A model generated the notes under the pieces. That model was not told where the DNA came from and searched no databases. It saw nothing but the letters and a program-made list of their open reading frames with translations. Below, piece after piece: positions 1,745 through 64,000 of a stretch of DNA of 64,000 bases. Within the stretch, counting starts at the first letter, position 1, and the number at the start of each line of letters is the position of its first letter. Position numbers and translations under genes: made by a program. The DNA comes from Psammoneis japonica (lineage: Eukaryota). Location of the stretch: positions 1-64,000 of the forward strand of contig QPGO01000174.1 in assembly GCA_008632985.1 (NCBI GenBank), given 5' to 3'.

Positions 1745-2250
1745 AGTGTCATTCGGCCGTTATCATCTTACATTACTTAACACTCCCTCTCATCGGGGAC
1801 ATTGGGACGAATTGCCCAGAGTCATCTCGCCATCCACGAAAAGACGCAATCGAAAGCAAAATTGTTTCCTCATTCACTGGCTTGGTGAGGAAGTCGGAAA
1901 GTCGGTGTTTGGTGTCAATGGAATGGATCAATGTCTTGCCTCTGGAGGTGCAGCAGCCCCTGAAGTGATGTGACTTTGCACTCAAGTGCTTGGAGTTCTT
2001 GGGCTTTGCTTGCGGGTCTCCTGTTGTTTGCAGCCTTTGGAGCTCTGTTTGAGCTTTGGTCTTGGAGTTTTGGTCACATTCAAACCTTGTGGAATTGCAC
2101 CAGAAAACATTGACAGAATTCCGGAAAATCATGTGAGGAGACTTGCTTTGTTGCAATGCATTGTCAAACTTCACACACACTCCTGCCTCCCAAGTGCAAG
2201 CCGCCATTGAAAAAAAGCTCTGGCCACTCATTCTTCATGTTGAGGACAAA
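1745..2250 (-). mobile_element. Ty1/Copia 3' remnant: RNase H C-terminus, polypurine tract and start of 3' LTR
   Basis: 'SKHLSAKSHHFR..TLIHSIDTKHRLSDFLTKP' matches Copia 'TKHIxxKYHHFR..LADxFTKP'. PPT gagagggag (1783-1791, minus) is followed directly by TGTTAAG at 1782. Far LTR end not defined. Confidence 0.75.
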
Positions 2251-2329
2251 CAAAATCTTGTCGTCAGACGTCTCTCGATTGGACATGGAGCCGGACAGGG
2301 ACAAATTGGTCACATTGATGCTTTCCTCT

Positions 2330-5300
2330 AAATTGTTTTCAACAGCTTTACTTCATTTCCGGCCTTTCTTTTGTTTTTTGCCCCGGTCAACAAGAGCCAT
2401 CTTGGGCAATGCAACGCCCATTCCGCCACCAACGAGCGTGTTCTTCTGACAATGCCCAAAGGTGCATTTGGGTGATGTGCCCTCCATTCGCCAATGCTGA
2501 AACAAACCGTTCTTGCTTGCTTTTGTTTCCATGGTGCTTTGAGTCTGACAAGTTCTCCCAAAAGCAACAACTTCTTTTTCGTTGTCACTCAGAACAATGC
2601 CGTGCAGTTGCGTTGGAAACAAGCTGTTGGCTCCGTCATCATTTCTGCATTCAACACGTGCAAAGTCATGCCATTGCCCACCATTGCGGCAATTCGGGTG
2701 CACCCGAAAGTGCAACTCATGTTCAGCCTGTAGATTTGACTCGGAACACACAACTGCGTGCCTGCACTGGATTCCACACTGGTTGCAACGGCACAAAAAA
2801 TCAACAATGTCCAGCTCTAGATGAGCACTTCGTTCCCTTTTCATTTCCAAGGTGCCGGTGCACTCGCAGTGTGTTTTTTTGACTCGGTCGACTGTGAACA
2901 TGGCGTGACCCAGGTTGTGGTGTGATGATGCTGCCAATGACGAATCCTGAGTTGCATGTGGACGGACAATCAAATCATTGGCTCTCTCCAACAAAAGACT
3001 CTGCTCGTGCAGTTGGCTCGCAAGTTGACGTGTGAACTCTTCTTTGCCTTGCAATGCTTGGCAGGTCCAACTTAGAAGCTTTGCCCATTTCTTTAGACCA
3101 GACTTGCCGGTGGCGGCATCCCATCCAGAAAACACACCCAACCAACAAAGAGCGGCAATCAAGTGCAGCAGGTCGCGGAACTTGGATGTTTTCCATCCAT
3201 GTGTGCCTTCGCCACGATCAATCATGCTGTGCAGCTCGAACATCAGAAGCACCAGGCGACATTTGATGTTGGCTTGGTTGGTGTGTGAGCACAGGGAAGA
3301 ACCGCAGCTGCAGAAGGAGCAGAACAACAACAATTTGTTGAGCAACAGCAACAAGTGTTCCACATCGTCACAGTCCACTGAACAACAAGCCGGCTCCAGG
3401 TCGTCACACAGGCTGTTTAGCCTTTGGCGGAATGCAAGAGGCAACTCCTTTTCAATTTCTGAACAAACGAACAGCAGGTTGTGAGAATTTGCCTTTGTGT
3501 GAAGGGACTGGCGTCGATCCGCACAGCGTCTAAAAATCTCAGAAACGGAGGAATCGGCATGGTTTGGGATGCAGAATTGACGACCCAGGTTGACATTTCT
3601 TGTTTGCATCCACACAATGTTGTGACAAACATGAGCTTGAGCCGTTGTCAGCTGCGTTGTGCAAGGACATGTGTGCATGAGCCCATGAAGGCAACATTGT
3701 TCCTCCAGATGTTCGTTGTGGACTGGGTCATCATGGCTGCACTCTTCTTTGGTGCAAGGCTTGTCAACCAAGGATGCGGAGGCCTGCGGTGGTTGATCCC
3801 CAATGGAAACTTCCTCCTCATCACTCTCTTCCTTGTCATCTTGCAGATTTGGTTGCTGTTTGTCTGAATCACATGCGGACTCATCGTCATTGTCAAGCAA
3901 ATTGTTGTGGTTGTTGGAAACGGATTCACCTTCTTTGTGTGCACAACCATCATTGTCTTCTTCTTTGCATTCACATTCTTCTTCGCACTCACATTCTGAA
4001 GGCTGATCATCAAAATTAGAAGCACGGTTTTTCTTTGTCTTGTCAAAATCAGGATGGCAACGAAGACAGAGTGTGCTCCATCCCTCCTCGGTCTGACCCA
4101 TCAGTGCCAATGCAAACAGCTTTCCCATCTTTTGGTCGCAGGTCAAACCAGACAAGGTGCAAAATCCATTTCACAAGACAACCGGTGGAAAGTTTGATCT
4201 CTGACCTGGTCTGCACCACTGAGATCCAAACATGTGGTTTGCCAAATCATTGTCAGGATTGGGAGGAATCAGGCAAATCGTCAAGAATGACAGAGAGCGT
4301 CTGAGGGACTGTGCCGCCTTGGAACATGTGCATTGGATCAGGGGACGCAAACCCAAACACACCATGACAATTGTCTCCCATCTGAAGATGAAAGAATGAA
4401 TTGTCAACCGTGTGTTGGCCAAACACCTCATGAAGCATGGTGGAACAAATGTTCATGCGCTGGACAACTGCACTGCGTGCCTTGGAACGGATTGAATCAG
4501 CTTTCGTCTTGGACATCACTGTGTCTGTTTGTGATTTGACACAAAGATGCCATGGACTGTCGGTGGAACCGGGTGGTGGTCCAAATGCTGCAACAGTTGA
4601 ACGCTCCATCAGTTCTTGGGAAAAGTGTCTGCAGCAATGTAAAGGTTCACTGCTGTTGGTCCAGGAAGAAAGACAGGCATGACTGATGTGGCAGGAGTTT
4701 TCGCGACCAGAAACACGGCCGGTTGCTTGTGCGGCGTTAACAGCATCGACCAACAATGTTGTGCTGTGGACAATGATGCGCTTGTGACAATGCTGATCGC
4801 CCAGTCGGACTCAGCAGACAGAAGGTGATTCTTGTGCTTGAATTGCAGATGCTAGAAGGACAGATGAAATTCGGTGGTAATTTCTGATGTTCATCCTGAA
4901 AACGGGATTCTTTGTTTTGCAACCTGTGTGTGTCGGAACAAATCCAAGAGGACGCCATGCTTCAAAATGATGGCGGGCACATGACTTGATGAGAGTTACA
5001 GAGAAAACAAATGGCTGCATTGAATGAGGTGCAACCTGTCCTTTCCCGGTTTTGTCGGTGCAATGCAAAACAAGCACATGAAAGGAACCGGGGACGGTGG
5101 GAAAAATGCAGCCACAACAACAGTTGCTGCAAGTTTCACCGTCCTTCATTTCGGCATCGTCACAAAGTTTCCAATCACCATTCTCATCCAACATGGGTTC
5201 ACTGGAGAGCACCTGAGACCAACGTGAATCAGGAGGAACATCAAGATTTGAAAGATCGGCAAAAAGGGGATCGTTGAACAGATCCTGCAGTTGGAGGGAA

Positions 5301-6150
5301 AAGTCGCACACAGGGATGCCGGGAGAGAGCTCCTGAGGCGGGTCGTTCTTGAACTGGTTGACGATGGAGACAGACTTGAGAGGAATGCGCTGCAGCACCG
5401 GGGGCACAACGCCAGGAAACATTGACTTGAGCTTGGACAGGAAAGTTCAAGAAGAGGGGATTTGTCCAGTGACAGACAACCCACCACTGGAGAATTCCTC
5501 CTGCACAGTTCTCAGCAGCTCATCTGTCACACTGATTGGGACACCCTTGGAGCAGCACAAATTCAACATGGGACCATGGATGTCATTTTGCAGTTGCACG
5601 CTTTTTTCGCAGAGAGGTGCCCAACTTGATTGAGTGTGGAAAAAGGGCCAGATTCTGCAACATTGGCAGCAGAACCCTCAGTGTCGGAAACAAATTCTTT
5701 GGGGTCTGGAAACTGGCAGTCTGAAACATCATCAACGTGGGGAAGAACGGAGTTGTTGTGTGAACCCCGCAGCTCTGGGACATGTGAAGGTGCACGATTG
5801 GAATGCGACGGCCGGGGATTGTGTCAGGTGTGACCTTGTGGAGTTCGAACTGCGTTGGCATCGGGACTTGCAGCGACAAATTCAAATGGAGGAGAGCCGG
5901 GGGTAGAAGAGGCAGCAACATCCACTTGTTCATGTGATTCTCCAGTTTGGGGGTGTTTGCCATGAGCGGGGTTGGATTGACGGGAAGAAGCGTCCTGAAG
6001 GCTTTGAGAAAAGGACAGTTTGCAGGGAAGACAAGTTCTCAGGTGGTGTTGAAGACCAGCTGGGAGAAAACGTTTGCCACACATGGGACAATCATTTCCC
6101 ATGGCGAAGGGGGCCGCCATTGTTCATGTTGCAAAAACGAATGATGTGAC
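2330..6150 (-). mobile_element. Degenerate Plavaka-like DNA transposase gene
   Basis: N-terminal zinc finger 'CPMCGKRF..GLQHHLRTC'; 'LQDLFNDP'; 'VLHCTDKTG..MQPFVFSVTL..R...AWRPLGFVP'; 'PDPMHMFQGG'. Frameshifted and TpA-depleted. Confidence 0.65.
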
Positions 6151-6339
6151 AATGAGTGGGATGAACCACGTGGTAAAAAAACATGTGGCAGGTGACAAGA
6201 TTGGGTTGCACAAATCAACTCAGGCATTGACGTGTGAGATCACAGCTTGGTTTAATGCACAACTTTCAGTTGTCTGCACGCCGGCGTGCAGAGTTAGCAC
6301 CAGGCAATTGACAACGCAGGACAAATCCGACTTTCCGCA

Positions 6340-7560
6340 GTGATGGAAATTTTGCCATGCTGGCTCACATCTCGGATCATTGCCCCACCAGACGATGCCA
6401 CTGCAAGTGACAAGGAAGCCCAGACAGCCCACTTTGGGTTTGGCAGTGAAATGGAATTTCTTGGCATTGACCTTCAGCCCGGCTTGTGTTCAAGACACAT
6501 GCACACCTTTTCAAGCTCATTGAGATGGTCTTTAAAATCACCTTTTGCAAGGCATGGCATGTCATCAACACAAGTTCTGATGAACTCTAGACCTGCCATG
6601 AGCTCACTCATGTGCTCTTGGAAAATGTCCGCAGCTCCACAGATTCCCATGGGTGGTCTGCAGCATGCATTTCCCCCAAGGCATGACAATCATGCACAAA
6701 CAACATGCGTGCAGAGCCAATTCAACATGACAGCATCCCATGTTCAAATCAAGGGAAGTCACACACATGAAACCTTCAAGCTTCTGCAGCATGTCCTGAA
6801 CATCAGGCAGAGGAAACGGAGTGTGCATTGGCCTCTTGTTCAGCTCACGGCAGTCGGACAGAAACCAAACTCAACCATTTTTCTTTGGTTGAACAAAGGT
6901 TGGAGCTGCCCATTTGGAGAAATTTATTTTTCTCAAGACATTTAAATTGCACAGTCTTTCAACTTCCTTTTCGAAGTGGTCGCCTCCAAGGCTTGTGGCA
7001 TGGGAAATGGCCCAGTGTGACATGGACTCGCACCCAATCTCAACTTTAAATCCACTGGTTTCCCGGTCCATTTGCCTGGAGAACCATTGAATGGGTTTTC
7101 AAATCTTTTTAAGAGAAAGTTCAGCTGCTTCTGCTCTTCTGGAGTTAGATGAGTTGCTGCTGCTGTCACATTGTCAAGGTCAGCAGCATGATGATCTGAG
7201 TCAAGGATCCGATTGACCCTGTCATCAAGCGCAATCACGGCATGAGATTCCTCAATGTGATCGGCAATCAACTTGAAAACATCAGCATTGAAGCGTGCAT
7301 CAACATTCTCCACAGGTGCAGTTGCATCTTCCCATTTGATCTCTTTGAAAAGTCCAATGTGATCCCAAGACTGGACACCAAGTCACGTTTCACGTTCAAA
7401 CCAAATTGAAGCTTTTGAAGCTCTTGCAGACCAACATGAAGGATTGAAGGCCCTTTTGCATTGAACATTTTGTTTATCATGTCTTTTTAATTGCATTGTC
7501 GGATTGTGTCTTTTACACTTTCGTCCAAGGAAACAGTTCTCTTTTGAACAGCGTAAATTA
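6340..7560 (-). mobile_element. Ty3/Gypsy pol remnant (protease end to RT)
   Basis: 'KEVERL...WAAPTFVQPKKNG', 'PFPLPDVQDML..SLDLNMGCCHVEL' (GYYH), 'PMG...ADIFQEHM..LEFIRTCVDD' (YxDD). Confidence 0.9.
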
Positions 7561-7853
7561 AGTGGAAAGTCAGCCTGGATGTCAGAAATCAAGTAGAACT
7601 TCGGTGCTCAAAGTGTAGTCAATCCTAGAACCTTGCATTGGGTATTCTTCAGGATAAAAAAATAGGACTGCTTTTCTGTTTATGATGTTACAATCCACAG
7701 TTTGTGGCCCTCGTAATCTGGTTTGGGATCAATCTACAGGCTCGCTCGTTGCATGTCTATATTATGTTACCATAGCTAGTCAGAGTCAACTTCAAATCGA
7801 TGAGATCTGTGCTGTCGTTGCAAATAGCCATGACGTCGGCAACTCTGCATCAC

Positions 7854-9068
7854 TCAGGGGGACCATTCTTCTTGGTCGACTCCATATGAGTTGTAAAAAT
7901 GGTTGAATCCATTGCTCTCCGAGGCATGTGTCCGCCTCGAATCGTCACAGGAACGCCACAAAGCAGTCACTCGCCCGATGTTGCTGTTGAAGCTCCCCAC
8001 AAAGTACGTGGCACTGATCAACAATTTGATGTCGGCCAGCAAAAACACGGTGTGTCCGCCATCTCGTGTCGTATCGTAATCACTCCGGGCCAACGTGTAC
8101 AGCGTACAGTTAATGGATGCCCTGCGTAAGGCCTCCGTCATATTGGGCACGACGAGATAGTCATCAGTGGCTAAATAGCAGGAACGAATCTTGGACAAGT
8201 CGTCAAAAGACAACCGATTGGTGAGTTGATCCACGTATTCTTGAGCTTCGAACGGTCTCGATTCTCGTAGAATCTTATCCCCTCGCCGTACATGGAAAGC
8301 CGCCGAGTGCTCAGAATCAAGCCCCTTTCCAAAGAGCGGAATTGACGCATTTCGTAAGATGCAGTCGATGCGCGCATGGATTTCCGGACGAATCTTCAAG
8401 TTGCACGCCAAAGGCGACACACTGCCATATAGGGTAATATTCGAACGCGTTTCTTCAAAATAGCCATGAATTTTACGGAGTAGCACAAAGAAAGTGTTCC
8501 ATTGTCGATTCGTCGACAGGGAAACGGTCACTATGGGCACTTCGTCTGAAGGTTGAAAACCGGGCCACCAAGCTTTTTCGATTGGAACAGAAGAATTCAG
8601 CGACTCAATAACAGTCGGCTTGTCCTGGACGTTATCCAGAACAGAAAAGTCTGTCATGAGAAAGCCCGTGCACAAGCCATGAGTGTTGTTTGGACGGTAC
8701 TGTTCAAATCGACTTTGATCCACTACTAAGGTTCGATTTGCCGCTTCCAAGAAATATAGCTGGAACAGTATGATTTGCATGAAAAGAGACCCGAAGCCGA
8801 GGTATCTCGTGAATCTTCCAAACTCAAAAAGAAAGACTTTTTGTTTTTTCATGAGAAGATCCTTGAAGCCACCCACTCCGGATAGCGTTATAGTTTCTGC
8901 TGTGTGATGCATGGTTGATGTATTCATCAAGCCAGCCGTCCTTGTTCCATTTTGCGAGCTTTCGACCATCAACGACGAGAATGGCTGGAGGCCGGGCATA
9001 AAGTAAACTCCGCGACTGGCCAAAATTAGAACAACTCCTACCACCAGTATTCTGCGGAGAGACTTCAT
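7854..9068 (-). CDS. Alpha-1,6-fucosyltransferase-like (GT23/FUT8-like) glycosyltransferase
   Basis: Intact ORF from ATG at 9068 (the track start is a GTG). N-terminal TM segment, 'LGFGSLF', 'FHVRRGDK', 'YLATDD', 'FVGSFNSNIGR'. Normal TpA. Confidence 0.8.
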   Translation of the reverse strand: MKSLRRILVVGVVLILASRGVYFMPGLQPFSSLMVESSQNGTRTAGLMNTSTMHHTAETITLSGVGGFKDLLMKKQKVFLFEFGRFTRYLGFGSLFMQIILFQLYFLEAANRTLVVDQSRFEQYRPNNTHGLCTGFLMTDFSVLDNVQDKPTVIESLNSSVPIEKAWWPGFQPSDEVPIVTVSLSTNRQWNTFFVLLRKIHGYFEETRSNITLYGSVSPLACNLKIRPEIHARIDCILRNASIPLFGKGLDSEHSAAFHVRRGDKILRESRPFEAQEYVDQLTNRLSFDDLSKIRSCYLATDDYLVVPNMTEALRRASINCTLYTLARSDYDTTRDGGHTVFLLADIKLLISATYFVGSFNSNIGRVTALWRSCDDSRRTHASESNGFNHFYNSYGVDQEEWSP

Positions 9069-11989
9069 ATGGTCGCTGACTACAGAAGGTAGCACTCACG
9101 TTGCATTCCTCAATATCTCTTGAGGATGTTCCTTTCTCTCAAACGGAACACTTCTACTCTCTACATGCTACTACTAGAGAGTGTCTGGTCTACCAAGCAC
9201 CTCAATTGAAGGTAAAAACCTCAATTGAGGCAGTTTTTCGACCCCCGTCGCTAAATCGCTAAAACCGTTGTTGCCCCCAAGTGACACCACAATGTTGTTC
9301 TCCATGCTTTAAAACCTCTAGGGGCAACAATTGGGGCAATTTTTTCATGTTCGTGGCCGGTTAAAGGAAAAGGGAAAAAAGGAGGGGATTCGACCGTTGA
9401 ACACACACACAAATTGACCATGCAACCAAGGCCAGAGTTGCACTGGCTTCTTTTGGTCCAGGGCAGTTGCTGCAGGTGCAAAGAGTGGGGCACATTGCAG
9501 CTGCAGGAGTGACAATGTGACGCTGAGTGTGTGCCACCAAGCTGAGCAGCCCAGCTTGGTTGTCAGCCAAGCCCTGCCAGGCCAGCTGCTGCCCTGGCTC
9601 CAGCTGTTCCTCCCAGCGTGCGCCGGTTGTTGAAGGAGCACCACATTGACTCAAAGGCTGTGTTTTAAGTGGGGCAGAGAGAAAAAACTGTCATCTCAAT
9701 TGGTGCTTGCTTCAGACCCTGCATCATGAGCGCAAGCTCCTCTTGAGAAATGAGCGAGAGAACAGCCATTTTTGGCACTTCTCTTTGGTTGCCCACTTGG
9801 CATTGCCGACAAATCTTGAACCCAATTTTGCTGACAGTTTCTTCACTCTTCAACCAAAAAAGCAGGCTCAACTTTTTGTTGGCTTCTTGTGGCTGGGGGT
9901 TGCTGTTGCAGGCACAAGTGGTGGGCACATGCCATGTGGCTGCTTCTTGGCAACAATGTGATGCCAAGCATGTGCCGCACACCAAGGAGCCAAGCAGCCC
10001 AGCTCAGCTTTGAATGGAGCCCCAGGACAGCAGCCAACTCTGGGTGATCTCAGCATGGTTTGCTTGTTCAAGCTGTGCTGCACTCACCCCACAATGCTCT
10101 GTGTTGTGGCGGCTTGTTGCAAGCCATGGCTCTGAGAAGTCAGCAGTCAGCCAGGGGCCCATCTTGCAAAGGCCGTGCATGTTGACCCTGTGCAAAGCTG
10201 TGTGAGGGGCCAGGCACAGGGGTTGCAATGATGGCTTCATGGCCATTGGCTCCAAGTTGGCATTTGATTGGGAGCCATTGCTGAGGGGCTGTGAAGTGTG
10301 GGGTTGGGAGCCCCTCACACTCTTTTTGTTGTCACAAATTGCTGCCACAGCTGTCTTTGCACTGCAGCCAGTCAGGTGCAGTTGGCCCCGAGTTGGCACT
10401 TGATTTGGAGTGACTGCCAAGGAGCTGTGAAGTGTGGGGTTGGGCAGTCCGGCCAGCTTGCACTCTTTGCTGACAGCAGAAAGTGCTGTTGCAGCTGTCC
10501 TTGCATTGTGGTGCCAGCCAGGCACACATGGCCAGAGCAGCCTTGGCACATCCTGCTGACAAAGCCAGCAAAAACAGTGACTCTTGTGGTTGAGCCAACA
10601 TGCAGGAGGTCTGGGCACACCCCTGGGAAGTCAAACAGGAAGGAGGGCTCAGCATTGCCACCAGCGCCAGGCAGACCACACAGCCCAGAGTTGGGTGTCT
10701 TGGCTGGCAGGTTGGAAAGCATTCTTGAGCACAGTCTGGCATGTGGGCAGTGCTGTCACCAAGAGAGCTGCTCTGCAGAGGAAGAGGGAAACAGGCAACA
10801 ACATTTTGCAAGAACTGTTTTGTCAATGGTCGGGTGGGATGGGGCAGCATCTAGACTTTGACGGAGCATTTGGCAGACAAAGATTGAGCACAGAGAGCTG
10901 TCCACTCAAGCCCCACAAGTGGCACATTCCAAAGGTGACACACCACACATGGGCCATGTGTTCATGCATCAACATGCCTCAAGCTGCAAGTCACATGAGA
11001 AACCACAACCAACCTTTCAACCAACCACCATCATGGACAGAACAGGGCAAGAGATTTGAAACAAGAGCGATTCATTGACTCTCTTCTTGTTTCATGCATT
11101 CAAGAGCTTCTTGTCCTTCTCAAATGTTTGTTGTGCATTCTTGTCTCTTTTAATTCAAGTGCAAAGAGGAGTCACTTTTCTTGTTTCTTTCTCTTGAGGG
11201 GTTGTTGGTTGTTGAGTGATGCAATTTTTGTTGTCACATTTTTGGAAATGTTGGCAAACCTGATCACTGCTTGATTGTCAACCCATTTGCTGTTTTGAGT
11301 CTCCATGGCATGAATGCCACAATTCCAGAGCCCTCAATTGTTTCATCAAACACAGTGCTTTGAAACACGTCCAACATCAACTCAACTCAGTTGAAATCCC
11401 AGTTTGTGGGCAATGAAAAATCACGAATGTCAAACAAATGGCTGCTTTCAACACATCAAGATCCCCAAGTTCAATCCAAATGTGACAACACACCTCAGAG
11501 CTTGTGGCCATGACACATGCAAGCATGCTTCATTGTTGTCATTGCATGCTCACATCGAAAGTGCCGATGGATCAAAGTTCAGGAAAAGGATGGCATGCAA
11601 ATTCAATTGTGCATTCATTGTTGGCATTGGCGCAATGACATTTGCGGCAGAAGCAATCAAAAATCCTTGTTCGTCATTGACATTTCTGTGTTGCTCAGAA
11701 TTTGAAATCTGACCACTGCCGTTGAGCATTTGGCTCTCTTTGTGTTGAAGTGGAAATGCACACTGGCCATTTGGCTTTTTTTGTGATGAAGTGGAAATGG
11801 CGCTTGACGATTTGCACTGACCATTTGGCTCACTTTGGCTCAAAGTCAGACAAAGAGATCTGGTTGTGGGCTTGTCATCAACCAGCCACGAGCATGAAAT
11901 CTTTACCACAATTGGGCTCTTCATTTGCACTCAACCACACATTTGCCTTCTTCACCTTGTTGGCATGCAAACATGTGCGTGCCAAAAAT

Positions 11990-25160: not shown

Positions 25161-25169
25161 ACTGGAGCT

Positions 25170-26784: not shown

Positions 26785-26799
26785 ATTGGCTGCTTGGCA

Positions 26800-52669: not shown

Positions 52670-54870
52670 GGAGTTGCATGAAATGTCAAAATTTTCATTT
52701 TTCCCTGCAAAAACGCACAGAATGTCAGAGAGACCTGCCTGCACGCGAGTGCCACCACAGTCTGCACGATGCTGCGAAAGTTTGTGCACTTGCCACCAAA
52801 ACGCTGCTCGCACTTTTTGCCAGGGGATGTGCCACAGACACACAACATTCGAAGCATTTGGCTGCAGGACAAATCCTGTGTTTTTGGGGCTCTGTTTGAT
52901 TTGACAAAATGTCGAAATTCCATGGAAGGTTTCTCAACAATTGCCTTTTTTCCCAACTGGTGCTGAGACAAAATGCCCCCAGAAATGCAGGTGGTTGTGT
53001 CTTCACCAGACCCCGCCAAAATTTCTCGTTTGAGAAGACAACCCACTGGATGGAGTGAGAATGTTTGAATGATGTTGCACAGTGCGTGAAAAATGACAAC
53101 CTGCGCTCACTCAATTGGGTTGGCATGGTGACATGAAGCACTGAAATGAACGACAAAACGGTGTGACAATCGATGATGACGACACCTGCCTTCTATCGGT
53201 GCCTGCCTGTGAGCTCATTTTCTGCTGTGTTCAAATTTGCATGTCCATGCACACATCACAAGCAGTTGCTGCTGTGTGAGCACATCACGTTGTCACGGCG
53301 TTTCTGCATGCATGATGACACGCATGGCACCGTGCGACTGCAAGAGACGCCGTTGAGTTCCCTTCTCGATCCCGAACTCCGATTTGAACCAGTCACGACT
53401 GTCTCAACCTCATCGCTTCGTGCGACAGCACAGATTTCAAATTCAAACCCGCCAAATGGCTCCAACCGCCAAAACCAAAAAAGGCCTCTTGGGGGGGGAC
53501 TGGGGCTAGAGACTGTTTTGGATTGTTGTTGTTCAAGATTCCCTTGCATGCCGTTCCAAAAGCGTTCCGAGAACGTTCTCACATGCACTGATTCGCGCCG
53601 AAATCAAACTTTGGAGCCGGTCAATTCGCCAATGAGACATGTGATGCATTGCAATTGGTGCACTGTTGTTGGAACTGTTTGAGTGTGGCACAACAGTGTA
53701 AAAGTTTAACAGATTATGTGGATTTATTGCAAAAAGGTACACCCGTCAAAACAGGTTTCTATTTTCTCTAAGAAAAAGAACGGCTGGCAGAAGTCTCAAC
53801 AATTTTGAGTTACAGTGGCTGTGGGTTGAACCACAAGGGTGTGTTGTAACTGCTGGCATTGTTTGACAATAAACCACATCTGCAACAACCGCCAACAGCT
53901 CCAACACGGAAACACCATTCGACGAAATGGGCATTTCGTCATTCCCGTGTTTCCACCGTTCCGGGACCGCACCAAAAGCGTTCCAAAACCGCACCAAAAG
54001 CGTTCCCGAAGGGAATCTCTCTAAAAGGCCTGACATCAAAACATTGTTTTTAGACGTTGGAAACGAATGAGAACCCTGCCCGACAACACATGGAACCATC
54101 AATCCACCTGCGGCAACAAAAACACTGCTGCATGGCAACAGCGCGGCATCAATCATTTGAGCACAATGTAAAATGACAAATGCGCAACACACGACTGTGC
54201 CACTCACCACGCAAATGCGCCTGCCCAGAGCCACAGTGGATTGTCTTGCAAGGACAGTCATTCAGAGGCAGACAAGATCGGAATGGATTTGGAACCAATG
54301 GGTTCGCGTCACACTTGAGCACTTTGCAGGACATGCAGCAGTGTGCGAGTTGTGGGGCCTTCTTCAAGATGAAGGCAACCTTTCTCATGGGTTCCTGCCC
54401 ACTCACTTGTTGTGTGCCCTTGTTTTCTGAATCTGCATTGTTCTGAAACCATTTTGCCAGGAATCTGTGGTGGAGCACACGAAGACACGATAAGAAAATG
54501 GTTTTGTGTCGGAACAGAGTCAACCGCAAATCTGCACTTGTTGCGCACCATCATTCCAATCTCTTTTTGAAAATCAACGCACTGGCATTGGCTTCACCAT
54601 CTTGTCATCTTAGATTGACTGGCAACACAGGTTTGCGGATGACAATGGCATGCACGGTGATGGTGGACGGCACTGACTTTCGCTTCGCATCAACGAACCA
54701 TCAACGCGTTCGCCGTTCGACCCCATCTAATCTGGTGTCTGGTGTTCGCATGTTCATAGCCCTAAATGCAACGTTTTAGGGGATGTGTAAAATGAATTAT
54801 CGTAACGAAAAAACACGAAAAACCACGAAAAACAGGGAAAAACGAAAATTTCGACATTTCATGCAACTCC
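52670..54870 (+). mobile_element. TIR DNA transposon containing a PIF/Harbinger-ISL2EU-like transposase remnant
   Basis: About 38-bp TIR ggagttgcatgaaatgtc(a/g)aaattttc(a/g)tttttccctg at both ends; 3-bp flank cag on both sides. 54300-54690: 'HFAG...VCELW.LL...PTHLLCALVF' and 'CTVMVDGTDFR'. The remnant could belong to a nested element. Confidence 0.75.
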
Positions 54871-55137
54871 CAGGGGGGAGACACAGACGGATGTTTTTAT
54901 TGCCATATCATACCGTGTGAAATTATTCATACGGTGTATGTACTGTACCGTACGGCACGTAGGGTGTAGGGCCCTATACCAGGTAGCTAGCTATAGGTAA
55001 CGAAGCACGATGGCGGCTTGAAACCAAAACTCTCTTCCTCTTTTACCGATTTACAATACTGTAAAGTACCTCTGGATACATCGTAGGACCCGGCAGGAAA
55101 GTCACTTCATTTGCAGGAGAAAAGAGTAGCTGAAATT

Positions 55138-56476
55138 ATGACCGATCCATTGCGATGCGTCAAGAGAAAACTGTTGTTTCCAATGATCGTGTGGGTTTTC
55201 ATCTGCATTCGCAGATTCAGTCTAAGTCACTCTCGCTTAATGGCGCAGTTTTCCCCGTCAGGTTTCGTCGACCATCAATCCATAATTGCAAGTGGATCAT
55301 CAGTGTCGTACAGCAAGAACATTTCGATTGTTGTGGGGTTGCGCGGCGAAATGGGAAATCAGATCTCCAGAATAGCGTTCGCTCGTGCAGTGCAGCTGTG
55401 GGCCCGAGACGACTTTGGGATTCACAACACTGAGCTTATCATTAAAGCAGAGAACGCACAAGGAGATTGGTACAAGACTCATGTTGAAGAATCAATGGTG
55501 ACGACGAAACGATGTTTCCCAAATATGCAGCAATACGATTTTGGAGCTGGCAACACAGAAGAAGTAGCAGCTGCCTTTGCGCAGCAATTGGAGTGGCTAG
55601 GAGAAGCTAATGCATCTCGACTTTCTCTTTTAGAAGATTCTTGTTTTGATGAAAATTGCCTTAACGATGCTCTCCGGTATCTGAAGACGCTGTTACAAGC
55701 CCCACCTCATCCATCCAACACCAACGCATCAATATCGATCCCGATATTGCTAGCATCACAATATAGCAATTATGCATTTGTGGTGATGGACAGATACTAC
55801 CAAGAGTTTCGGAACCTGTTTGTGTTCGATGAAGAAGTGTGTTGTAAACTACGACCGGATCCAGACGAGAGTGTGTTTGTAAGTTTCATATATTTATCAA
55901 CAAAAAATGCTGGCGTTAATGTTATCTTATCACGTCCGTGCGATTTTCCAGCACTTTCGAAATTTCAAGCGTGAATTGAAGTCGAGATCGAATGATTTAG
56001 GTTATGTAGAATTGAGCCCGAACAAAACAGCCTATGAATTGTTTGGCCATTTACGGCCAGGTGACAAGGTCGCGATAACTACACGATTCGGTGGAGACGC
56101 AGCGCAGAAATATGTTTCCGCGCTTGAATCACGTGGTTTGGTTGTTCGCTTGGTCAAGGGACAGTCGGCAGTTGAAGATTTCTGCTTCCTTCTCTCTGCG
56201 CAAAAGGAACTAGTAGGAATGGCAATGTCCACCTTCACTATTTGGGCAGGTTACATTGGCCATGCAAAACGAGTCGTTTGGTATTCCATGGATACTCCAT
56301 CTCGTCGTCGACGCTTTGGTGACAAACTGTTTGAGCACTACAATTGGACAGATCCTCAACTGAAACAAAGGGTGATTTTTCAGCTGTACAAGTCTGAAGA
56401 AGCAGAGAAACTTGATACAAAATTGAGACTCGAAAGGGGATCGCCGCCCTTGATCAAATCGCGCACGGCATTCTAA
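55138..56476 (+). CDS. Alpha-1,2-fucosyltransferase-like (GT11-like) gene; exons 55138-55878 and 55952-56476
   Basis: N-terminal TM and 'LRGEMGNQ'. A 73-bp intron gtaagt...ttttccag joins 'PDPDESVF' to 'HFRNF' in frame. Also 'DFCFL' and 'STFTIWA'. Normal TpA. Confidence 0.8.
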
Positions 56477-57069
56477 TCACATTGAACAAGTCTTCTCGTT
56501 GTCATAAGTCTTCAGGTGTACGACGTTAAATCTTCCAAAATAAACTTCTTAACGAAAGTGATTGTACCAAGACACTTTGAATAGAAACTCAAAATTGCTG
56601 GAAAACCAGGGTGGCTGGCATTGAATGTTGAAAAATGCACTCAGCCCTGAACAAAAACAATGTGTTGTGAATTGCACATGAAACAGACACTTTGGAAAAA
56701 CACATCAAACAAAATGAGCGAGTTTGTGTGATGCGCTGTTTTGGCGGCAAATTGAAAAAAAGAAAATCCACGCACTTTGCTGCAATCCCAAAAATGGCAT
56801 GAACCATCAAACATGACAGTCATCCATGTTGCCAGTGGCTCCACCACCTGCTGCCACAGCAGCGCCACCCCAGTTGCAGAGCCATGCACACATGCCTGTT
56901 GGCTGTGTGACCATCGTCCACTGGGAGGGTCAACGTGCAGCAGCACACAAGGTGACAAGTTCATTCACAAGCCATTGCATTGCAAAGTGAGAGAAGTGAG
57001 GAGTGAGAGGCATGGAGGGGTGGGACTGATGGCATGGTCAATGCTCTTTGGCAGGCCTGGTTGCATTTA

Positions 57070-57700
57070 GGGCCCTGTGCTGGAGAGAATTTGTGATGAC
57101 AGACACACACCTTGTCGCCACAATTTGCCGATGCTTTTGGTTGTAAATTGATGAATGGAAAACAGATGTTTGATTTTTGTGTGCAAGAGTTTCTGAGTCA
57201 TTCCAGCCACATTGTCACCAAAACAAGTGTCACAACCATTTGGCAAAGACTGCTGCTGCCACTTGAAGATTGGGTGCACAGAGCAACCCTCACAACTTCC
57301 GAAATCTTGTTGATTGCCAACAACACTTTTCCATTGCATCTTGTCAATTTCTTGGCAACTGTGGTGTGATTTGCTCACTTGACTTTGTCAGAGCCATTGA
57401 TGTCTCTCTTTGTTCTGGAGCCTGAAATGGGCAATGGCTTTGCAGCAATTTTTGTTGATTTTTGCAATGAGCACCATGGGTCCATGGTTGCTTGCACAAC
57501 TGCAATGTTTGACATGATTCGATGCAGTTGTGAGTGCCAACACACTTGCTTGTTTGACCCAAGCAGTGCAATGAAAACCAGTTGTTGGAAATGACTTGTT
57601 GTGTGCACATGACAAGTGTGTGCCAAGATGCACGTGGCACAAACAGATGATGATTTTAACACATGGTTGCTGTTTGCCATTGTGCATTTTAATTGGTTGG
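57070..57700 (-). mobile_element. Possible hAT-like transposase remnant
   Basis: 'LLGSNK..CWHSQ..IM' resembles TRWNSxxxM. Weak support. Confidence 0.3.
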
Positions 57701-57958
57701 CATTCTCATGGACAATTCACAGCCACAAAATCACTCATTGCTCCTCTCACTTTTCTCACAAAATCACACTTGTGACACCACTTGCACACCCTCTCTGAAA
57801 AAGACACACCACTCACAACCATGGCTGCAGCCATTGCTTTTAACACCTGTCTTGATGGGACAGTTTTTGCAGCAGGAGCCCAGAGCTGCACTGTCACCCA
57901 AGGCTTTGCTGCCATTGAAGACTTGTGTCAAGTGCCTTCCTCTAAGATTGGCGACATG

Positions 57959-58405
57959 TGCAGCATGCATGCAGACAAAAGGTTGTTTTTGTCACGCCCT
58001 TTGTGACATTTAAAGGCTGCAACACATTGCCGTGATGCATCAACTCTTGTCAGCAGCTGTGTGTTGCACTCCTCCCCATGTGTCACGCGTCCGTGCGGTT
58101 CTTTACCAACGTGTGCTGACACTGCACGTTTTTGGCAGAACAGTGTGGGTGCGCACGAAGGAACATGCAGAACTGCACAGAGTTTTGCGCGTTCGACAGT
58201 GATCAATGTTGCTGCAGACAACTCCCACTCAGGGTTTCGAACCCCTGGCCTCCTGCCTGATGGTTGCGATGAACCACTCCGCTGTGAAGTCACAATGCAG
58301 CATGCATGCAGACAAAAGGTTGTTTTTGTCACGCCCTTTGTGACATTTAAAGGCTGTGACACGTCGCCGTGATGCATTGGCTCTCATTGGCAGCTGTGTG
58401 TTGCA
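57959..58405 (-). mobile_element. TRIM-like mini LTR element (447 bp) inserted in the Copia gag
   Basis: 110-bp direct repeats 57959-58068 and 58296-58405 (TG..CA); PPT ggggaggag (58069-77, minus); TSD catg. Host reads 'KIGDM|IKGF' across it. Confidence 0.85.
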
Positions 58406-59381
58406 CATGATCAAGGGATTTTGCAAGGACACATTCAATGATGATGTGGCCAACTTTCCCCACTTGGCAGTCAGGAAGTTTTCAATTCACTGTGCACATG
58501 TCTGGGCTGTTGGGCCATCAGGAGTCAGCCTCTGCAAGCTCAGGTGTTTGTGGGCAGCAACATGATTGCTGCATGGGCTGACTGCCTTGCCAAGTTGCAC
58601 AACATTCATGGGAACAAATTGGAAGATGGTGCCACCACTGTGACCCCTCTTGCTTGGATGCACAGTTTTTTCAAGTGAGAGGAGCTTTTTGGGCTAAACT
58701 CCAGCACCATCACAATGCTGTGACCAGAGCACTGCCACTGGGCATCATTTGTAAAGAGTCAGACATTGCTGGTTGGATGGATTTGTGCTGTCACGTGCAA
58801 CACCATCCATGAAGACTTGACTGCTGCTGTGACCAAGCATGATGCACAGGCCTGTGGGACTGTGTGTGTGGCAGGTCAAAGGAGCCAATCATTGAAGGAC
58901 CTGGGTGGGCCTTCATCAAACCATTTGAGGGTTGCACCTGGAATGGACAAGAAGCCTTTTTGGCTTTAAAGAGGCCAGGCAGGCAAAGGCTTGGCTGCCA
59001 CTGCCACTTGGAAGAACTGCGCATGTGCTCAGACAGCAACCGCAAAGTGCACTGGGGGCTGCCATGCTTTTGACCAGCACACTCAGCACTGGCAGAGGGC
59101 TCACAATGATCTCCTCAACCTGAAGGGGCCTGTGGCTGACACCAAGAAGGTCGCTGTTTTTCTCAAAGGGTGGGGTGCTGACCCTCAATTGAAGCTGGCA
59201 AGAACGTCGTGAATGGCAACAAAATGCCAAGCTCTTGAGTTTTGAGTTTTGCCAGCAGCACATGAAGACCGCTGTTGAGAACACCAACAATGCCATGGAC
59301 AAGCAGTGCACTGTTGGCTCAGTTCAGAATGAATGTGATCCCAAGAAGAGGGGAAATCTGAACAGGAAGAAATGGGACAAG

Positions 59382-59491
59382 TGCAACACACAGCTGCTGA
59401 TGAGAGTCAATGCATCACGGCGATGTGTTGCAGCCTTCAAATGTCACAAAGGGCGTGACAAAAATGACCTTTTGTCTGCATGCACACTGCA
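59382..59491 (+). mobile_element. Solo LTR of the TRIM, opposite orientation
   Basis: Reverse complement of the 110-bp repeat; TSD caag on both sides. Confidence 0.85.
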
Positions 59492-62400
59492 CAAGCCCAG
59501 GATTGGGGCCAGACACCATCCAAAGGAGGGCCAATGGCCAGATCTGGAGTTGCAAGTGCAAGCCAAAGTTGAAGAGCTCCACAAGAACAGCATTGAGCCT
59601 GAGCCTGAGGAGCTGACAGCTGAGGCCATGGGCAGAGCCGATGCTGGCATGCAGCTCAGGAGGGTGGTGCACAAGCCCAGGCCTTTGGTTGAAGATGCAA
59701 TTGAGCATGAACCCTTGAAGGAGAAAACTGATCAGGAATGATTGGCTGCACTGACAAGCAAGAGGACTCTTGCAGTGTCACCTGTTGACAACAGCAGTCC
59801 TTGTCTGACTCGCTCATGTGGTGTGTGTCTGTCGGCACTGCTCCTGCCAGCTTCACGTCAGTTTGCTTTGCATGTGCAGTTCAGTGCACCTCAAACTCAG
59901 TCAACACTGAATCTTCAGACAAAGTGTCGTGCAACAAGCTTGACTGACGCATGGATGGTGCATGCATTGCTGGCTCAGCTCAAGCCCCATTTTCTGATCA
60001 CAACCACACCATTTTCAGTGCGGCCATGCTCTGACAAGTGTGAGCCAGTTCACAATGTTCCCACACAGTCAGCTGCCACATTGGTGCTGCATGAGGCCAT
60101 GACCATGCATTTTGGGGGCTGAGTGAAGAACTCGTTGACATGTCCCAACCAATTGAGAGCCAATGGCACAACTTTGGATGGCGGTCCAAAGCAGTTTGAC
60201 AGCATGAGCTCACACTTGATCTCATTCCCAGACTCAAAAGTCTGGACTCCACTCCTGGAGGAACTGCCATGTCTGGAACTCACATCCAATGAGTTTGCAC
60301 AGAACAAGGATGTTGTTGAGTTGAAGCTCAACACTGTTGGCAGTTTGTCTCAATCCTTGGGGCTCAGCCCAAAGGGGGAGCACAGGGTTGCGAATGAAGC
60401 GTGCTGCATTTCTGTGACCTGGCCATGCAATGACTGGTGACGACTCCATGCCATGCAAGTGCGTGGCAGCCAATGCAACCATTTTCCACCTCAACTTTGA
60501 AAGGGGACAGCCTGCATGACAAATGTGAACAAGATGTGCACAAGGATTGTGAGAAGCATGTGCAGGTGTTCACACTCTCAACCTCTGAAAGCATGTCCAC
60601 TCTCACACACAATGTTTTGTCCAGACATTGGGGCACTGGCCCAACTGCCACAAAGAACATGCTCAGGGTGACAACTGAAGCCAGAGTCAGGAATCTGTGT
60701 GCACCATCCAAGAGGAAGGTGTGGAAGAAGGCTCCTTGGCTCAAGTTCCTGATTGTGAATGACGAGTTTTGCATGAACCAAATTTTCTCAAAGGTCAAAT
60801 CAATTCATGAGGACATTGCTGGCTCAATTTTCAAAAAACAGCAGAGAACATGGCTGACCATTTCTGCCCTTGGGAGCTGATGCTGCCCAGGGGTGGCAAG
60901 CTCCTTCGTGCAAAGGTCAAGAGTTGCAAACCTGATTTGGGTGGAGTGCCAATTGGGGCCAGGAATTCCAGACTTGTCCCAGACTCAGGTGTGCTCACAC
61001 ACAAAAAGATGCCCCTTTTTGCATGAAACACGCAGTCCAAACTTTTGGTGCAATTTTCAATGGTTGAAATGCAATGATTTTCAAATGTGTTGTTGTGGGC
61101 ACACACAGAAAGGTCTTGTGCATGCACCCATGCACTTGAAAGTGAGAATGGACTGAGTTGTTGATTTCCAAATTGTGCCGCATGATCAGAGCTTGGTTTT
61201 CTGATGTGCAATTTGCAACTGTGGTCATGTGTGGAGAGCTGATCGTTTCCTCCCGAGTGACTGCAAATGACCACATTTTGCGTTTGACTTTTACATTTCA
61301 TGTGTGCAAAGCATGTGGTCATTGTCCAAAGAGACATTTCTCAGATGAACAATTTCATGTTGAAGCATGTCCAAATTAAACACGAAATGACAGTGCCCAG
61401 CTTGGGGTGACAGACACATCAGATGCAGATGCAGGGTCATGCCATTGGCGTCAAACAGCAGCATTGGGACCCAGTTGATCCCATCTGGAACAGCCCATGG
61501 CAGTGGAAGGCACCCATTTTGACAGAAGTTAAACAGGGGCAAAGTCATCACACTAAAGTTGGTCCTCTGCGCAGAGCTCCGCATGTGTTTGTCTGTCTGT
61601 TGCCAGTTTGTGCCAACATTTGGGGGAATGAAAGAGCTGCCAGTGTCTGCGTCCCAAGTGACCAATCATTGGAGACAAAGCAACAATGTCTGCTCTGCCT
61701 GCAGAGCAACAAGAGACAACAGCCAAGCATGTGGCAGCTCGCAGACACAGTCATTGAAGAGACGGACCGATTGAGTGGGAGATTCATGCGCACACAGAAG
61801 CACAATTTTCTCATGTGATTTTAGATTTTTGTTTCCACTGAATGCAAAAAAAAACGTTTGGGAGGAAACTGTTGATGCCACATTAAAAGTCTTTTTAAAA
61901 ATGCTTGAGCACAACTTGCTCTCAACGGATTAAATCAAACATGTGTTGATTTGCAAGTTTCAGAAGACGTGAGAAGAAGTGAAGCTCAGCCTGCACAATG
62001 TCATCAACTTTGGACCCTTTTTCACTGTTCCATTGGCATGGGTGACTCACGCACTTGCATCAGTTGATGCCATGGAGGAAATGTGCATGGAGGTGGGAAA
62101 AAAATGGTCCTTGGAGGCAGATTGTGAGTGAGCTGAGGCTCAATTGTTGGCGCTGACAGTTTTGGTCTTCTTGTGCCATGCCGCAGCCTGCATCAAGCAT
62201 TTTCATCATTGTGGCAGATGCCACAGACTGCATCAAATGCTGCGGTTGGTTGAAAAAAGTGGGCCATCATGGTTGCTAAAAGTCACAGCCATTTTGGCAG
62301 TCAGTTGGCTCAAATTTAGTGACTGATGGATGGGATCTTCAGGTTGAATGGAAGGATGGCATGTCCAACTGGCACAAATGAGATTGCTGGTGAGCCAGCT

Positions 62401-64000
62401 TTCAACTGATTGGTGTGGGACATCTTGCATGTCAGTGTGCCAGGATGGTTGTGAAGGTCAAGTCTAGCAGGTGCCAGGAGTGCACACTCCCAAAGACCAT
62501 GGTGCAAGCCCTGGCTGTGGACCAGAAGACAGGGTTGGACCTTTGGAAGAAGGCAATCAAGAAAGAGATGAAAAACGTCATGCCTGCACTCGAATTCTCA
62601 GATGACAACTCCATGCCAGTTGGACACAAACATGTTGAGTGCCACACAGCATTTGATGTTAAGACTGATTTGACCCAGAAAGTCTGATTTGTTGTGGGAG
62701 GTCACAAAATGGAGCCACCCAAAGAGTCAACCTGCTCTGGCACAGTCTCGCATGACAGTGGTGTCAGGATGGCTTTTGCCGCTGCTGCGTCAAACAATCT
62801 TGACATTGTGTGTGCGGACATTCAGAATGCCTGTCTGAATGCAAAGACTGAGAAATGCTGCCACACCACTGCTGGTCTGGAATTTGGAAAGCAGAATGAA
62901 AAACAACTGCTTGCACATGTTGATGACTTGCTGGTTGTCTCTCATGAGCCTCAGATGTTTGTGGGTCATGTGGCATCTTGTTGCATGCTCAAAAAAGGCA
63001 GCATCAAGGAACCAGAAGAGCACCTTGGTGCCCAGATCTGCAAGCACCAACCATTTGGCTTGGATGGCAAGGCATGTTGGGCATTGTCCTCTGACTTGCA
63101 TGTCAAAAGGGGGCAATTGCCAATGTTGAATTCAAGCTTGGCCAGGTTGGCCAGAGCTTCAGATCCAAGGCTTCAACTCCATTGAGCTTGGGATGCAGAC
63201 CAGAACTCAACAGTTCTCCTGAATTGGATGCCCGGATTGCAAGTTGCCATCAGGGGCTCATTGGCATGCTGTTTTAGATGGCAGAGCTGGGCCAGATTGA
63301 TGTCACAGTGCCAGCGCCCCTTGTGTCCTTACACTTGGCAGCGCCAAGGGTTGGTTGCCTGGACGAGGTGCTTTGCACATTCCCACAAGTGTGGCTGCAG
63401 ACAGAACATTGTCCCAGGGTGGCTGAAGCCATCCCAAGGGACATCCCTGAGGCATGGAGCAATGTCAATTTTGCTTCATTGCACACTGAGTTGTGTGCAT
63501 GTTGAATCCTGCATGAACCACTCGACTCAACATTTTTGGTGGAATTGGCTAGACTTTGACCCCTGCCAGAGCCACAACATGCACAAGATGTGAGCATTGT
63601 TGGTCTCAAACTCTTTAAACTGATGTCTTGCAAGAATGCAACAGGTGTGCATGTCAATGGCATCTGTCACTTCAAAATGGAGCTGACTTTTTTGTGGAGC
63701 ACCTTTGTTGCATGGACAAGTGCGAGAGTCAATGTTCAGTGATTGGCAACTGACTGACTTTCACCCCCATTCCAGGCCCCAAAAGTGTGCTGAACTGCAC
63801 ATTTGTGTGCTGTCAGTCAATCAAGGGGCATTTGGATAAAAACAGAAGGGTCAATTTTTGCACGTGGCATCATGGAGCTGAGGCGGAAAGTTGTTGGGAA
63901 GATGTGAAAAAAAATGCACACCATGACAAGCGCCGCTGATGCATTGTCTTGCAGCTCCACCAAAATAACACCAACGGCTCTCACAAACAACACACACAAT

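Follow-up and report, generated by a model that had tools for sequence, protein, structure and literature searches.

Near-complete loss of TpA from transposons, repeats and dead genes around five spared single-gene islands

Composition of the TA-depleted blocks and the gene islands

The 64,000-bp stretch of DNA analysed here (the window) is largely occupied by dead transposons and dead genes whose TA steps have almost all become CA or TG, and it is interrupted by five short islands that keep their TA. Over the whole window there are 638 TA against about 4,260 expected from base composition, an observed/expected ratio (o/e) of 0.15, and the corresponding ratios are 1.65 for CA, 1.70 for TG and 0.45 for CG. 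The division into blocks and islands follows the coordinates of a first-pass annotation of the same DNA, and the local profile was followed in 1-kb bins. In order along the window, with Y for pyrimidine and R for purine, the islands and blocks are as follows; the blocks have no strand of their own.

Island 1: 1..1789, minus strand; open reading frame (ORF) 313-1527(-), a glycosyltransferase lead (C1GALT1/Fringe-like) that comes from the Atlas alone; TA o/e 0.45-0.67; Tyr 4.0%.
TA-depleted block 1: 1790..7540; 28 TA in 5.75 kb, mostly YTAR, with o/e 0.02-0.10 in 1-kb bins; holds a KDZ/Plavaka-like ORF and a gypsy reverse transcriptase (RT) fragment.
Island 2: 7541..9369, minus strand; ORF 7857-9095(-), weakly FUT8-like (PF19745, E 1.3e-5, below the gathering score); TA and CG normal.
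TA-depleted block 2: 9370..28500; 60 TA in 19.1 kb, CG o/e 0.09-0.53; holds dead GT10 and GT90 ORFs and an assembly gap.
Assembly gap in block 2: 19117-19382; 266 N.
Island 3: 28501..30599, plus strand; ORF 28681-30309(+), an exostosin of family GT47 (PF03016, E 6.5e-15); borders at 28503 and 30587.
TA-depleted block 3: 30600..36945; GC 54-55%; 20 TA, 10 of them in a patch at 33520-33976, and several 1-kb bins with 0-1 TA.
Island 4: 36946..39249, minus strand; ORF 37218-38429(-), Methyltransf_24 (PF13578, E 4.3e-7); TA o/e 0.40-0.59.
TA-depleted block 4: 39250..54750; 75 TA in 15.5 kb; holds a gypsy element with long terminal repeats (LTRs), a second KDZ-like ORF and high-copy short repeats.
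Island 5: 54751..56599, plus strand; gene 55087-56473(+); TA borders at 54757 and 56582.
Intron of the island 5 gene: 55879-55951, plus strand; 73 nt, GT..AG (GTAAGT...CAG), TA-rich.
TA-depleted block 5: 56600..64000; 30 TA in 7.4 kb; holds a 115-bp high-copy repeat and an ORF with 'NACL...HVDD'.

The five blocks together cover 53,864 bp, or 84% of the window, and contain 213 TA (TA o/e 0.06), with CG o/e 0.36, CA and TG o/e 1.75 and a GC content of 48.7%. The five islands cover 9,870 bp and contain 425 TA (TA o/e 0.58), with CG o/e 0.96, CA and TG o/e 1.22 and a GC content of 45.4%; the difference in TA density has a Fisher p of 2e-188. Other steps made of A and T are not depleted in the blocks, where AA/TT stands at o/e 1.25 and AT at 0.87. 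The depletion is confined to discrete regions and the neighbouring DNA is ordinary. Block borders are sharp to 50-100 bp, and TA falls from 5-9 per 100 bp to 0 inside one 100-bp bin; examples, given as last TA and next TA, are 1778 and 2329, 9362 and 9666, 26595 and 28503, and 56582 and 57068. The first-pass annotation had described TA as nearly absent from these blocks and wholly absent from 1790-2325, with CA and TG abundant and ordinary TA in five intact genes. All of this was borne out, and its borders agree with ours to within 100 bp or less.

Every island consists of one open gene with about 60-320 bp on each side, and at most one intron was detected in the five genes. Contigs from one sample's runs were compared with positions 40001-60000 at a likeness of at least 80%, which gave 7237 matching contigs for run X1. 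In run X2, contig 14 lacks the intron of the island 5 gene, and the X1 contig reads through it; X2 is therefore probably complementary DNA, though it is listed as 'DNA?', and this behaviour was seen at one intron only. An RNA-like contig covers 55013-56536, within the TA borders of island 5. Since the intron is TA-rich, the islands keep TA in non-coding DNA as well as in their coding sequence.

Direction of the change and its history on each copy

Pfam was used to scan 328 ORFs, namely the 215 of at least 100 aa and 113 of the 451 ORFs of 55-99 aa (those in 1726-7607 and 56592-63936). Credible family matches were obtained for only 3 of about 210 block ORFs of at least 100 aa; standard indices of repeat-induced point mutation (RIP) and Pfam-based transposon annotation fail on such TA-erased DNA. 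Searches with protein homologues (tblastn) added further pieces, and the nameable content of the blocks comes to two pieces each of gypsy and of KDZ/Plavaka-like elements, together with a GT10 and a GT90 ORF.

Ty3/gypsy LTR retrotransposon: 46863..52586, minus strand; Pfam RVT_1, RT_RNaseH, Integrase_H2C2 and rve (the last two weak) and an LTR pair.
LTR on the low-coordinate side of the gypsy element: 46873..47057, plus strand; about 180 bp, 91% identical to 52391-52573.
LTR on the high-coordinate side: 52403..52586, plus strand; partner of 46873-47057.
Second gypsy RT, fragmentary: 6489..7226, minus strand; tblastn high-scoring segment pairs (HSPs) of gypsy homologues.
Probable KDZ/Plavaka-type DNA transposon ORF: 2356..4800, minus strand; 605 aa open (2356-4170).
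Second KDZ-like fragment: 43000..44433, minus strand; ORF 43270-44433(-) with 0 Tyr; 19 tblastn HSPs, from the same homologue set, at 42500-43999(-).
GT10 fucosyltransferase-like ORF, hypermutated: 14914..16275, minus strand; 454 aa with a single Tyr; PF00852 at E 5.2e-5, slightly short of the gathering score.
GT90 (POGLUT-like) ORF, hypermutated: 21005..21841, plus strand; PF05686, E 3.1e-16.

In the gypsy element, Pfam detects pol over 47501-49393(-) and tblastn with 120 homologues extends it to 47103-50379(-), with RT, RNase H and integrase in order and flanked by the LTRs; the organism-named matches are diatoms, at 41-45% identity. ORF 2356-4170(-) contains 0 Tyr, 7.1% Cys and 5.5% His. 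It has 220 homologues at E of 1e-3 or less, and PF18759 (Plavaka) was found in 3 of the 10 homologues tested. The GT90 ORF reads PWVHC where the solved human POGLUT1 (5l0r_A) has PWVHY, and the GT10 ORF gave no match against the PDB. Several peptide strings on which the first-pass annotation had relied are present: PICCG at 15138(-) within the GT10 ORF, and GCCH at 6738(-) and CVDD at 6572(-) within the second gypsy RT. Its Copia strings also exist (NACL at 62826(+), HVDD at 62916(+) and 5739(-)). The Copia label that it attached to them was left without Pfam support, as was its DIRS label, since neither family was matched at E of 0.01 or less in the 328 scanned ORFs; heavy mutation may hide them.

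Polarity was read from gypsy pol at 423 columns with at least 70% agreement among at least 40 homologues. Conserved Tyr is kept at 1 of 20 columns, and the other positions now hold 10 Cys (TGT/TGC), 8 His (CAT/CAC) and 1 Phe (TTT). Six other residue types are fully kept: Asp (26/26), His (15/15), Trp (15/15), Asn (14/14), Gln (13/13) and Cys (8/8). At Leu columns there are 23 TTG, 2 TCA and 2 CCA codons, as expected from TTA and CTA. Similarly, the KDZ-like ORF keeps 1 of 5 conserved Tyr and has 2 Cys, 1 His and 1 Phe at the others. Across six block ORFs Tyr makes up 0-0.7% of residues, Cys 4.5-7.1% and His 2.5-5.5%, and Tyr makes up 2.8-4.0% in the five island ORFs. Together these columns support the direction that had been claimed from conserved residues, from A:T to G:C at TpA.

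The same direction appears in the dinucleotide counts. Pyrimidine-purine steps per kb are equal in the two compartments (244.1 in the blocks vs 243.8). Measured against the islands, the blocks are short of 1837 TA and 1903 CG and carry an excess of 1750 CA and 1814 TG, so that loss equals gain. This balance indicates that two transition processes, TA>CA/TG and CG>TG/CA, account for the whole anomaly. The second is visible in the protein as well: of 33 conserved Arg columns in gypsy pol, 22 are kept, 9 have become C, Q, H, W or stop through CGN>TGN/CAN, and 2 show other changes. With CG at o/e 0.36 in the blocks, CpG decay explains the CG half of the signal only. The excess of CA and TG, which had been read as the product of TpA mutation, is thus partly that product, and CpG decay supplies about half of it.

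The blocks also undergo deamination of 5-methylcytosine at CpG, which, unlike the process described here, cannot remove TA. The two losses are also not in step. CG o/e is 0.5-0.9 in two TA-free regions, 39-41 kb and 52-54.7 kb, and at 10-14 kb it is 0.09-0.31. Since CG loss varies independently of TA loss, TA loss must saturate before CpG decay is far advanced, and we infer that it is a much faster process, separate from CpG decay.

A TA-poor composition that is native to these sequences, selection, or GC-biased gene conversion among repeats is a further alternative, and the slightly higher GC content of the blocks (48.7% vs 45.4%) is in keeping with it. Catalytic and conserved Tyr have been destroyed, however, and no homologue is Tyr-free at those columns: the most Cys/His found there is 3, in 1 of the 120 homologues (P0114), which argues against a native lack of Tyr in the gypsy family. 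Biased conversion would act regardless of dinucleotide, yet AA/TT and AT are undepleted, and the TA-rich intron of island 5 shows that TA is kept in the absence of coding selection. On these grounds native composition and biased gene conversion were rejected, and we regard them as the least credible of the explanations considered.

Both strands have been affected to a similar degree. Changes of Tyr to Cys, which are A>G on the sense strand, number 10, and those of Tyr to His, which are T>C on the sense strand, number 8. The two outcomes are interleaved along pol in the order CCHHCCCHHFHHCYCCCHHC, and no significant strand-coordinated runs were found along pol (7 runs vs about 10 expected). Block totals are 5994 CA and 5788 TG.

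Copies of the same sequence carry different outcomes. Besides the LTRs, the repeats that allow such a comparison within the window include two short families.

Very high-copy repeat of about 115 bp, three copies: 57957-58076, 58296-58409 and 59374-59493 (inverted); about 90% identity.
Repeat pair of about 400 bp: 41514-41911 and 51866-52263 (inverted); very high X1 depth.

Over six in-window paralogue pairs (1189 columns, 199 mismatches), 34 of the 74 adjacent double mismatches are CA in one copy and TG in the other, and no other double-mismatch type occurs more than 3 times. Each pairwise comparison of the 115-bp copies contains 4 such doublets. The two LTRs are identical at 163 of 179 aligned columns, and their differences include 1 CA/TG doublet, 2 TA/TG and 4 CG/TG-or-CA. 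LTRs are identical at integration, and their present differences therefore place the mutation after insertion. Furthermore, the X1 contigs differ from positions 40001-60000 by 2225 transitions vs 507 transversions, and CA/TG doublets are 10 of 40 among the differences listed to genome-wide paralogues. The change happened on integrated DNA and on each copy separately.

These features bear directly on an imprint of RNA editing, in which transcripts of retroelements would have been edited from A to I by an ADAR- or ADAT-type enzyme and the result fixed by reverse transcription. The best-characterised element in the window is a retrotransposon, and both ADARs and the A-to-I mRNA editing of fungi prefer a 5' U. 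Editing of the sense strand would give Tyr>Cys only, yet 8 of the 18 changes are Tyr>His, and the CA/TG doublets between LTRs and other paralogues need separate events in each integrated copy. The change is found on both strands, and outside reverse-transcribed elements the KDZ-like DNA transposon ORF, the glycosyltransferase pseudogenes and the non-coding repeats are equally depleted. AA is undepleted at o/e 1.25, although ADARs accept a 5' A. An editing imprint is excluded by strand symmetry, by the copy-by-copy doublets and by the involvement of DNA-transposon-like and glycosyltransferase ORFs; we consider it very improbable.

The TA-free sequence is also present in the reads. One X1 contig covers the TA-free interval 43776-44861 with 0 differences at depth 65.5, and another covers 45918-46607 with 2 differences at depth 64.2, values comparable to those of the gene-island contig at 54846-57349 (1 difference, depth 66.3). 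TA-free DNA is thus reproduced by read-derived contigs at single-copy depth within this same sample. A sequencing or assembly artefact, in which a modified base at TpA is misread and the true DNA has TA, could draw on the fact that all reads come from one sample, with a library type that is without record. Misreading of a palindromic step would split the reads between CA and TG, halving the depth or breaking the contigs, whereas the TA-free contigs of 690-1086 bp are intact at depth 64-66 with 0-2 differences, equal to the gene island. Residual TA obeys a strict context rule (see below), and paralogues carry fixed alternative outcomes. We therefore rejected an artefact, the chance of which seems to us very slight.

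Sequence context, targets and probable chemistry

The TA that survive in the blocks are not a random sample. Of the 213, YTAR accounts for 140, the mixed contexts (YTAY/RTAR) for 70 and RTAY for 3, and among the 425 TA of the islands the corresponding counts are 82, 219 and 124. Normalised for length, survival is about 0.31 for YTAR, about 0.06 for the mixed contexts and about 0.004 for RTAY. ATAT occurs 0 times in the blocks vs 34 in the islands, and ATAC/GTAT 0 times vs 57. All three RTAY survivors lie in two escaped patches, so RTAY is extinct elsewhere in the blocks. The bias of the survivors toward YTAR, with RTAY gone, makes the target look like 5'-RTAY-3'. Additionally, a purine precedes 6 of the 8 Tyr>His sites and 3 of the 10 Tyr>Cys sites. 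The first-pass annotation had proposed TpA as the target. Targeting of TpA stands, and a wider context applies in which RTAY is erased and YTAR partly survives; this rule appears to be new. The two patches are the following.

TA-keeping patch in block 3: 33520..33976; 10 TA in 457 bp, including GTAC, CTAC and CTAT; holds two of the three surviving RTAY.
TA-keeping patch in block 4: 53699..53870; 10 TA in 172 bp, including GTAC at 53738.

The second patch adjoins high RNA-like X2 depth (124-776 in 53341-54674). The patches may be younger insertions or protected segments.

Within 40001-60000, 26 of the 27 block bins have a summed depth of at least 274, at least four times the single-copy value of about 65, and this includes all 22 bins of block 4. 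The blocks are therefore repeated DNA. Some short repeats reach a depth of 30,000-50,000. Depths of up to 49,634 (bin 58010-58676) and 33,607, set against about 65 for a single copy, imply hundreds of genomic copies of the short repeats. Both the 115-bp and the 400-bp families are TA-free, with many CA/TG doublets between copies, and they may be like miniature inverted-repeat transposable elements or satellites. Selfish DNA is prominent among the mutated sequences, with gypsy found twice and KDZ-like elements twice, and the host-type GT10 and GT90 ORFs are mutated as well. Sharp borders and one-gene islands fit recognition of inserted or repeated DNA, or exposure outside active transcription units.

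Based on these results, the explanation that we favour, and hold to be on balance probable, is a context-specific hypermutation at the level of DNA, from T:A to C:G at TpA, that acts on integrated transposons, repeats and the dead genes among them and spares single-gene islands. The core of the first-pass reading, a targeted TA>CA/TG mutator confined to repeat domains, is supported to this extent. According to this proposal, both strands of each copy would be mutated separately after insertion, the process would run near to saturation and faster than CpG decay, and the palindromic 5'-RTAY-3' would be preferred. Tyr codons would become Cys or His, the stops TAA and TAG could not persist, and transposon proteins would be destroyed. 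Such a process would probably serve as a defence directed at selfish or silent DNA.

Several observations weigh against this explanation or narrow what can be drawn from it. The bin at 58677-59343 is TA-free yet single copy (72.9) at 80% likeness, so that repeat status alone may not define the target, and the two patches described above are multi-copy and retain susceptible TA sites. No more than 18 sites underlie the purine rule at Tyr>His sites, and the three comparisons of the 115-bp repeat share sequences and are not mutually independent. The three runs represent one sample of one study, probably the source of the assembly, and are not an independent replication. One assembly records an end state and not current activity. 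The 328 scanned ORFs of the window yielded neither a deaminase nor a TET/JBP domain, and in sequence A-deamination and T-modification read alike.

A chromatin-domain effect is an alternative account of where the change occurs. Silent chromatin would be exposed to a TpA mutator or to TpA-biased repair, and transcribed genes with a few hundred bp around them would be protected. The composition of each island, one gene with about 60-320 bp per side, would follow from it, and at island 5 the RNA-like contig (55013-56536) lies inside the TA borders at 54757 and 56582. The mutated GT10 and GT90 ORFs of host type and the one TA-free single-copy bin would also be accommodated, and the main target described in a preprint on Bigelowiella natans (see below) is single copy and transcriptionally silent. 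Spreading chromatin would account less well than insertion junctions for borders that are sharp to tens of bp, and two small patches inside the blocks have escaped. We consider a chromatin-domain effect unlikely.

For the chemistry of the proposed hypermutation, conversion of adenine to hypoxanthine in DNA by a deaminase of the TadA/ADAT type is the leading and, by analogy, most likely view. The natural tRNA target of TadA/ADAT enzymes is A34 after U33. TadA/ADAT2-3, the A-to-I mRNA editing of fungi that derives from this family, and the ADARs all convert A to I, which is read as G, and prefer U/T directly 5' of the edited A, a likeness that is partly cited in the same preprint. In nature TadA/ADAT2-3 and the ADARs act on RNA, whereas here the imprint is on both DNA strands, on non-transcribed repeats and on a probable DNA transposon.

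The same targeted process could instead use another chemistry, in which thymine at TpA in silent DNA is modified to 5-hydroxymethyluracil (5hmU), 5-formyluracil or a base J-like derivative by a dioxygenase of the TET/JBP type and mispairs with G. Since T>C read from the opposite strand is A>G, all of the sequence results fit equally. A palindromic RTAY suits an enzyme that reads double-stranded DNA, and KDZ-like ORFs are present in the window. The KDZ superfamily, known chiefly in fungi, has a link there to TET/JBP genes, which travel with KDZ transposons in some species. In the telomere repeats of kinetoplastids and in dinoflagellates, T that precedes A is replaced by base J and 5hmU. Against these points stand the lack of any TET/JBP domain among the ORFs scanned and the sole experimental precedent, whose authors propose deamination in the preprint, itself unproven. 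We judge thymine modification improbable, and adenine deamination remains our preferred chemistry.

Known systems, host lineage and neighbouring features

The first-pass annotation knew of no described system of this kind, a statement that is now outdated. A bioRxiv preprint (Mettrop et al., 10.64898/2026.01.13.699255) measured the same type of mutation in the chlorarachniophyte Bigelowiella natans, and it was the sole report of TpA hypermutation found in the literature. In mutation-accumulation lines, 230 of 231 single-nucleotide mutations in two viral inserts, one from a nucleocytoplasmic large DNA virus (NCLDV) and one from a virophage, were A>G or T>C, every one of them at TpA, with a rate of about 6e-7 per site per generation, and the genome contains 124 TpA-poor clusters and 324 nearly TpA-free coding sequences, enriched in RT and DDE domains (bioRxiv 10.64898/2026.01.13.699255). 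The authors propose deamination with an ADAT2 homologue as a candidate only, and their Discussion also cites ADAR (bioRxiv 10.64898/2026.01.13.699255).

The B. natans system, as the preprint describes it, resembles the present window in several ways. In both, A>G and T>C occur only at TpA and produce TpG and CpA, on both strands and in discrete regions of an otherwise ordinary nuclear genome, and in B. natans the TpA-poor clusters are likewise CpA+TpG-rich and are enriched in RT and DDE domains. A low TpA frequency is found in both, 0.0018 in the low-TpA coding set of the preprint and 0.0040 in our blocks. By analogy, the two are probably the same kind of process. There are also differences. 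In B. natans the process was measured in real time, and here only its end state is seen. The main targets reported there are one NCLDV and one virophage insert, still at a Rho_TpA of 0.45, whereas here both transposon classes and dead glycosyltransferase genes stand at 0.06. The main text of the preprint contains 0 occurrences of 'context', 'flanking' or 'trinucleotide', and here RTAY is preferred.

Fungal RIP is the other system with which the blocks invite comparison. It depends on cytosine methyltransferase homologues of the RID/DIM-2 type and on a premeiotic stage. RIP too is a dinucleotide-specific transition hypermutation at the level of DNA that affects both strands copy by copy and leaves sharp compositional blocks, and the duplicated, independently mutated copies that characterise it are found here in the CA/TG doublets and the multi-copy depth. 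In Neurospora and other fungi, however, RIP makes C>T changes, chiefly from CpA to TpA, and so generates TA. The blocks show the opposite, a loss of TA (TpA o/e 0.06) and a gain of CA and TG (o/e 1.75), and the reading of the first-pass annotation as a reverse RIP, the functional mirror of the fungal process, is supported.

The host of the present window is probably of a lineage other than B. natans, to judge from intron-poor genes, diatom-leaning homologues and database proteins none of which is identical to ours. B. natans genes are intron-rich. For ORF 313-1527(-), the Atlas clusters closest to it occur most often in Bacillariophyta (score 0.97), and for another gene the Atlas lead is Chlorophyta/Streptophyta. 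The 313-1527 protein has 35 homologues, all at 40% identity or less, of which the sole organism-named one is from Seminavis robusta at 30%, and the GT47 protein of island 3 has 1 homologue, at 35% identity. The island proteins had no near-identical entry in a collection of 5.8 billion proteins, where the best matches were 35% and 40%.

With this in hand we put forward, tentatively and with less assurance than the hypermutation itself, a broader proposal. A defence similar to RIP and opposite in its chemistry, which would act at RTAY in double-stranded DNA through an adenine deaminase or a thymine modifier, may exist in at least two distant lineages, a chlorarachniophyte and probably a stramenopile of diatom-like affinity. 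In the present genome it would be saturated over most intergenic DNA and would have killed both transposon classes together with neighbouring duplicated host genes. To our knowledge, the eukaryotic hypermutation defences known until 2026 were all cytosine-based (RIP and APOBEC). If the proposal is true, a widespread arm of genome defence in eukaryotes would have gone unnoticed until now, and it would offer a natural source of an A-to-G DNA editor with sequence specificity. The predicted enzyme would occur in nature and introduce A>G changes of a programmable-looking kind into double-stranded DNA, and its identity and targeting become a tractable comparative and genetic problem. What the window adds is saturation, an effect on both transposon classes, short repeats and dead host-type genes, borders placed to tens of bp, a testable rule in which RTAY is erased and YTAR spared, and a probable second lineage.

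Glycosyltransferases recur through this stretch. Three live genes lie in islands (the C1GALT1/Fringe-like lead, the FUT8-like gene and GT47), and two dead ones (GT10 and GT90) lie in a hypermutated block. This pattern suggests that the process can remove gene copies of host type.

Scans of the window for tRNA genes and Rfam families returned nothing, and no viral genes were recognised in it. Two X1 contigs join position 46857 directly to 54871 and so skip 8,013 bp that comprise the gypsy element and its right-hand neighbours; this junction, for which the shorter side has only 21 letters, may be a paralogous arrangement or an insertion-free allele. Finally, a tandem repeat at 36123-36924, with a unit of about 280 bp and 76% identity between units, abuts the border of island 4.

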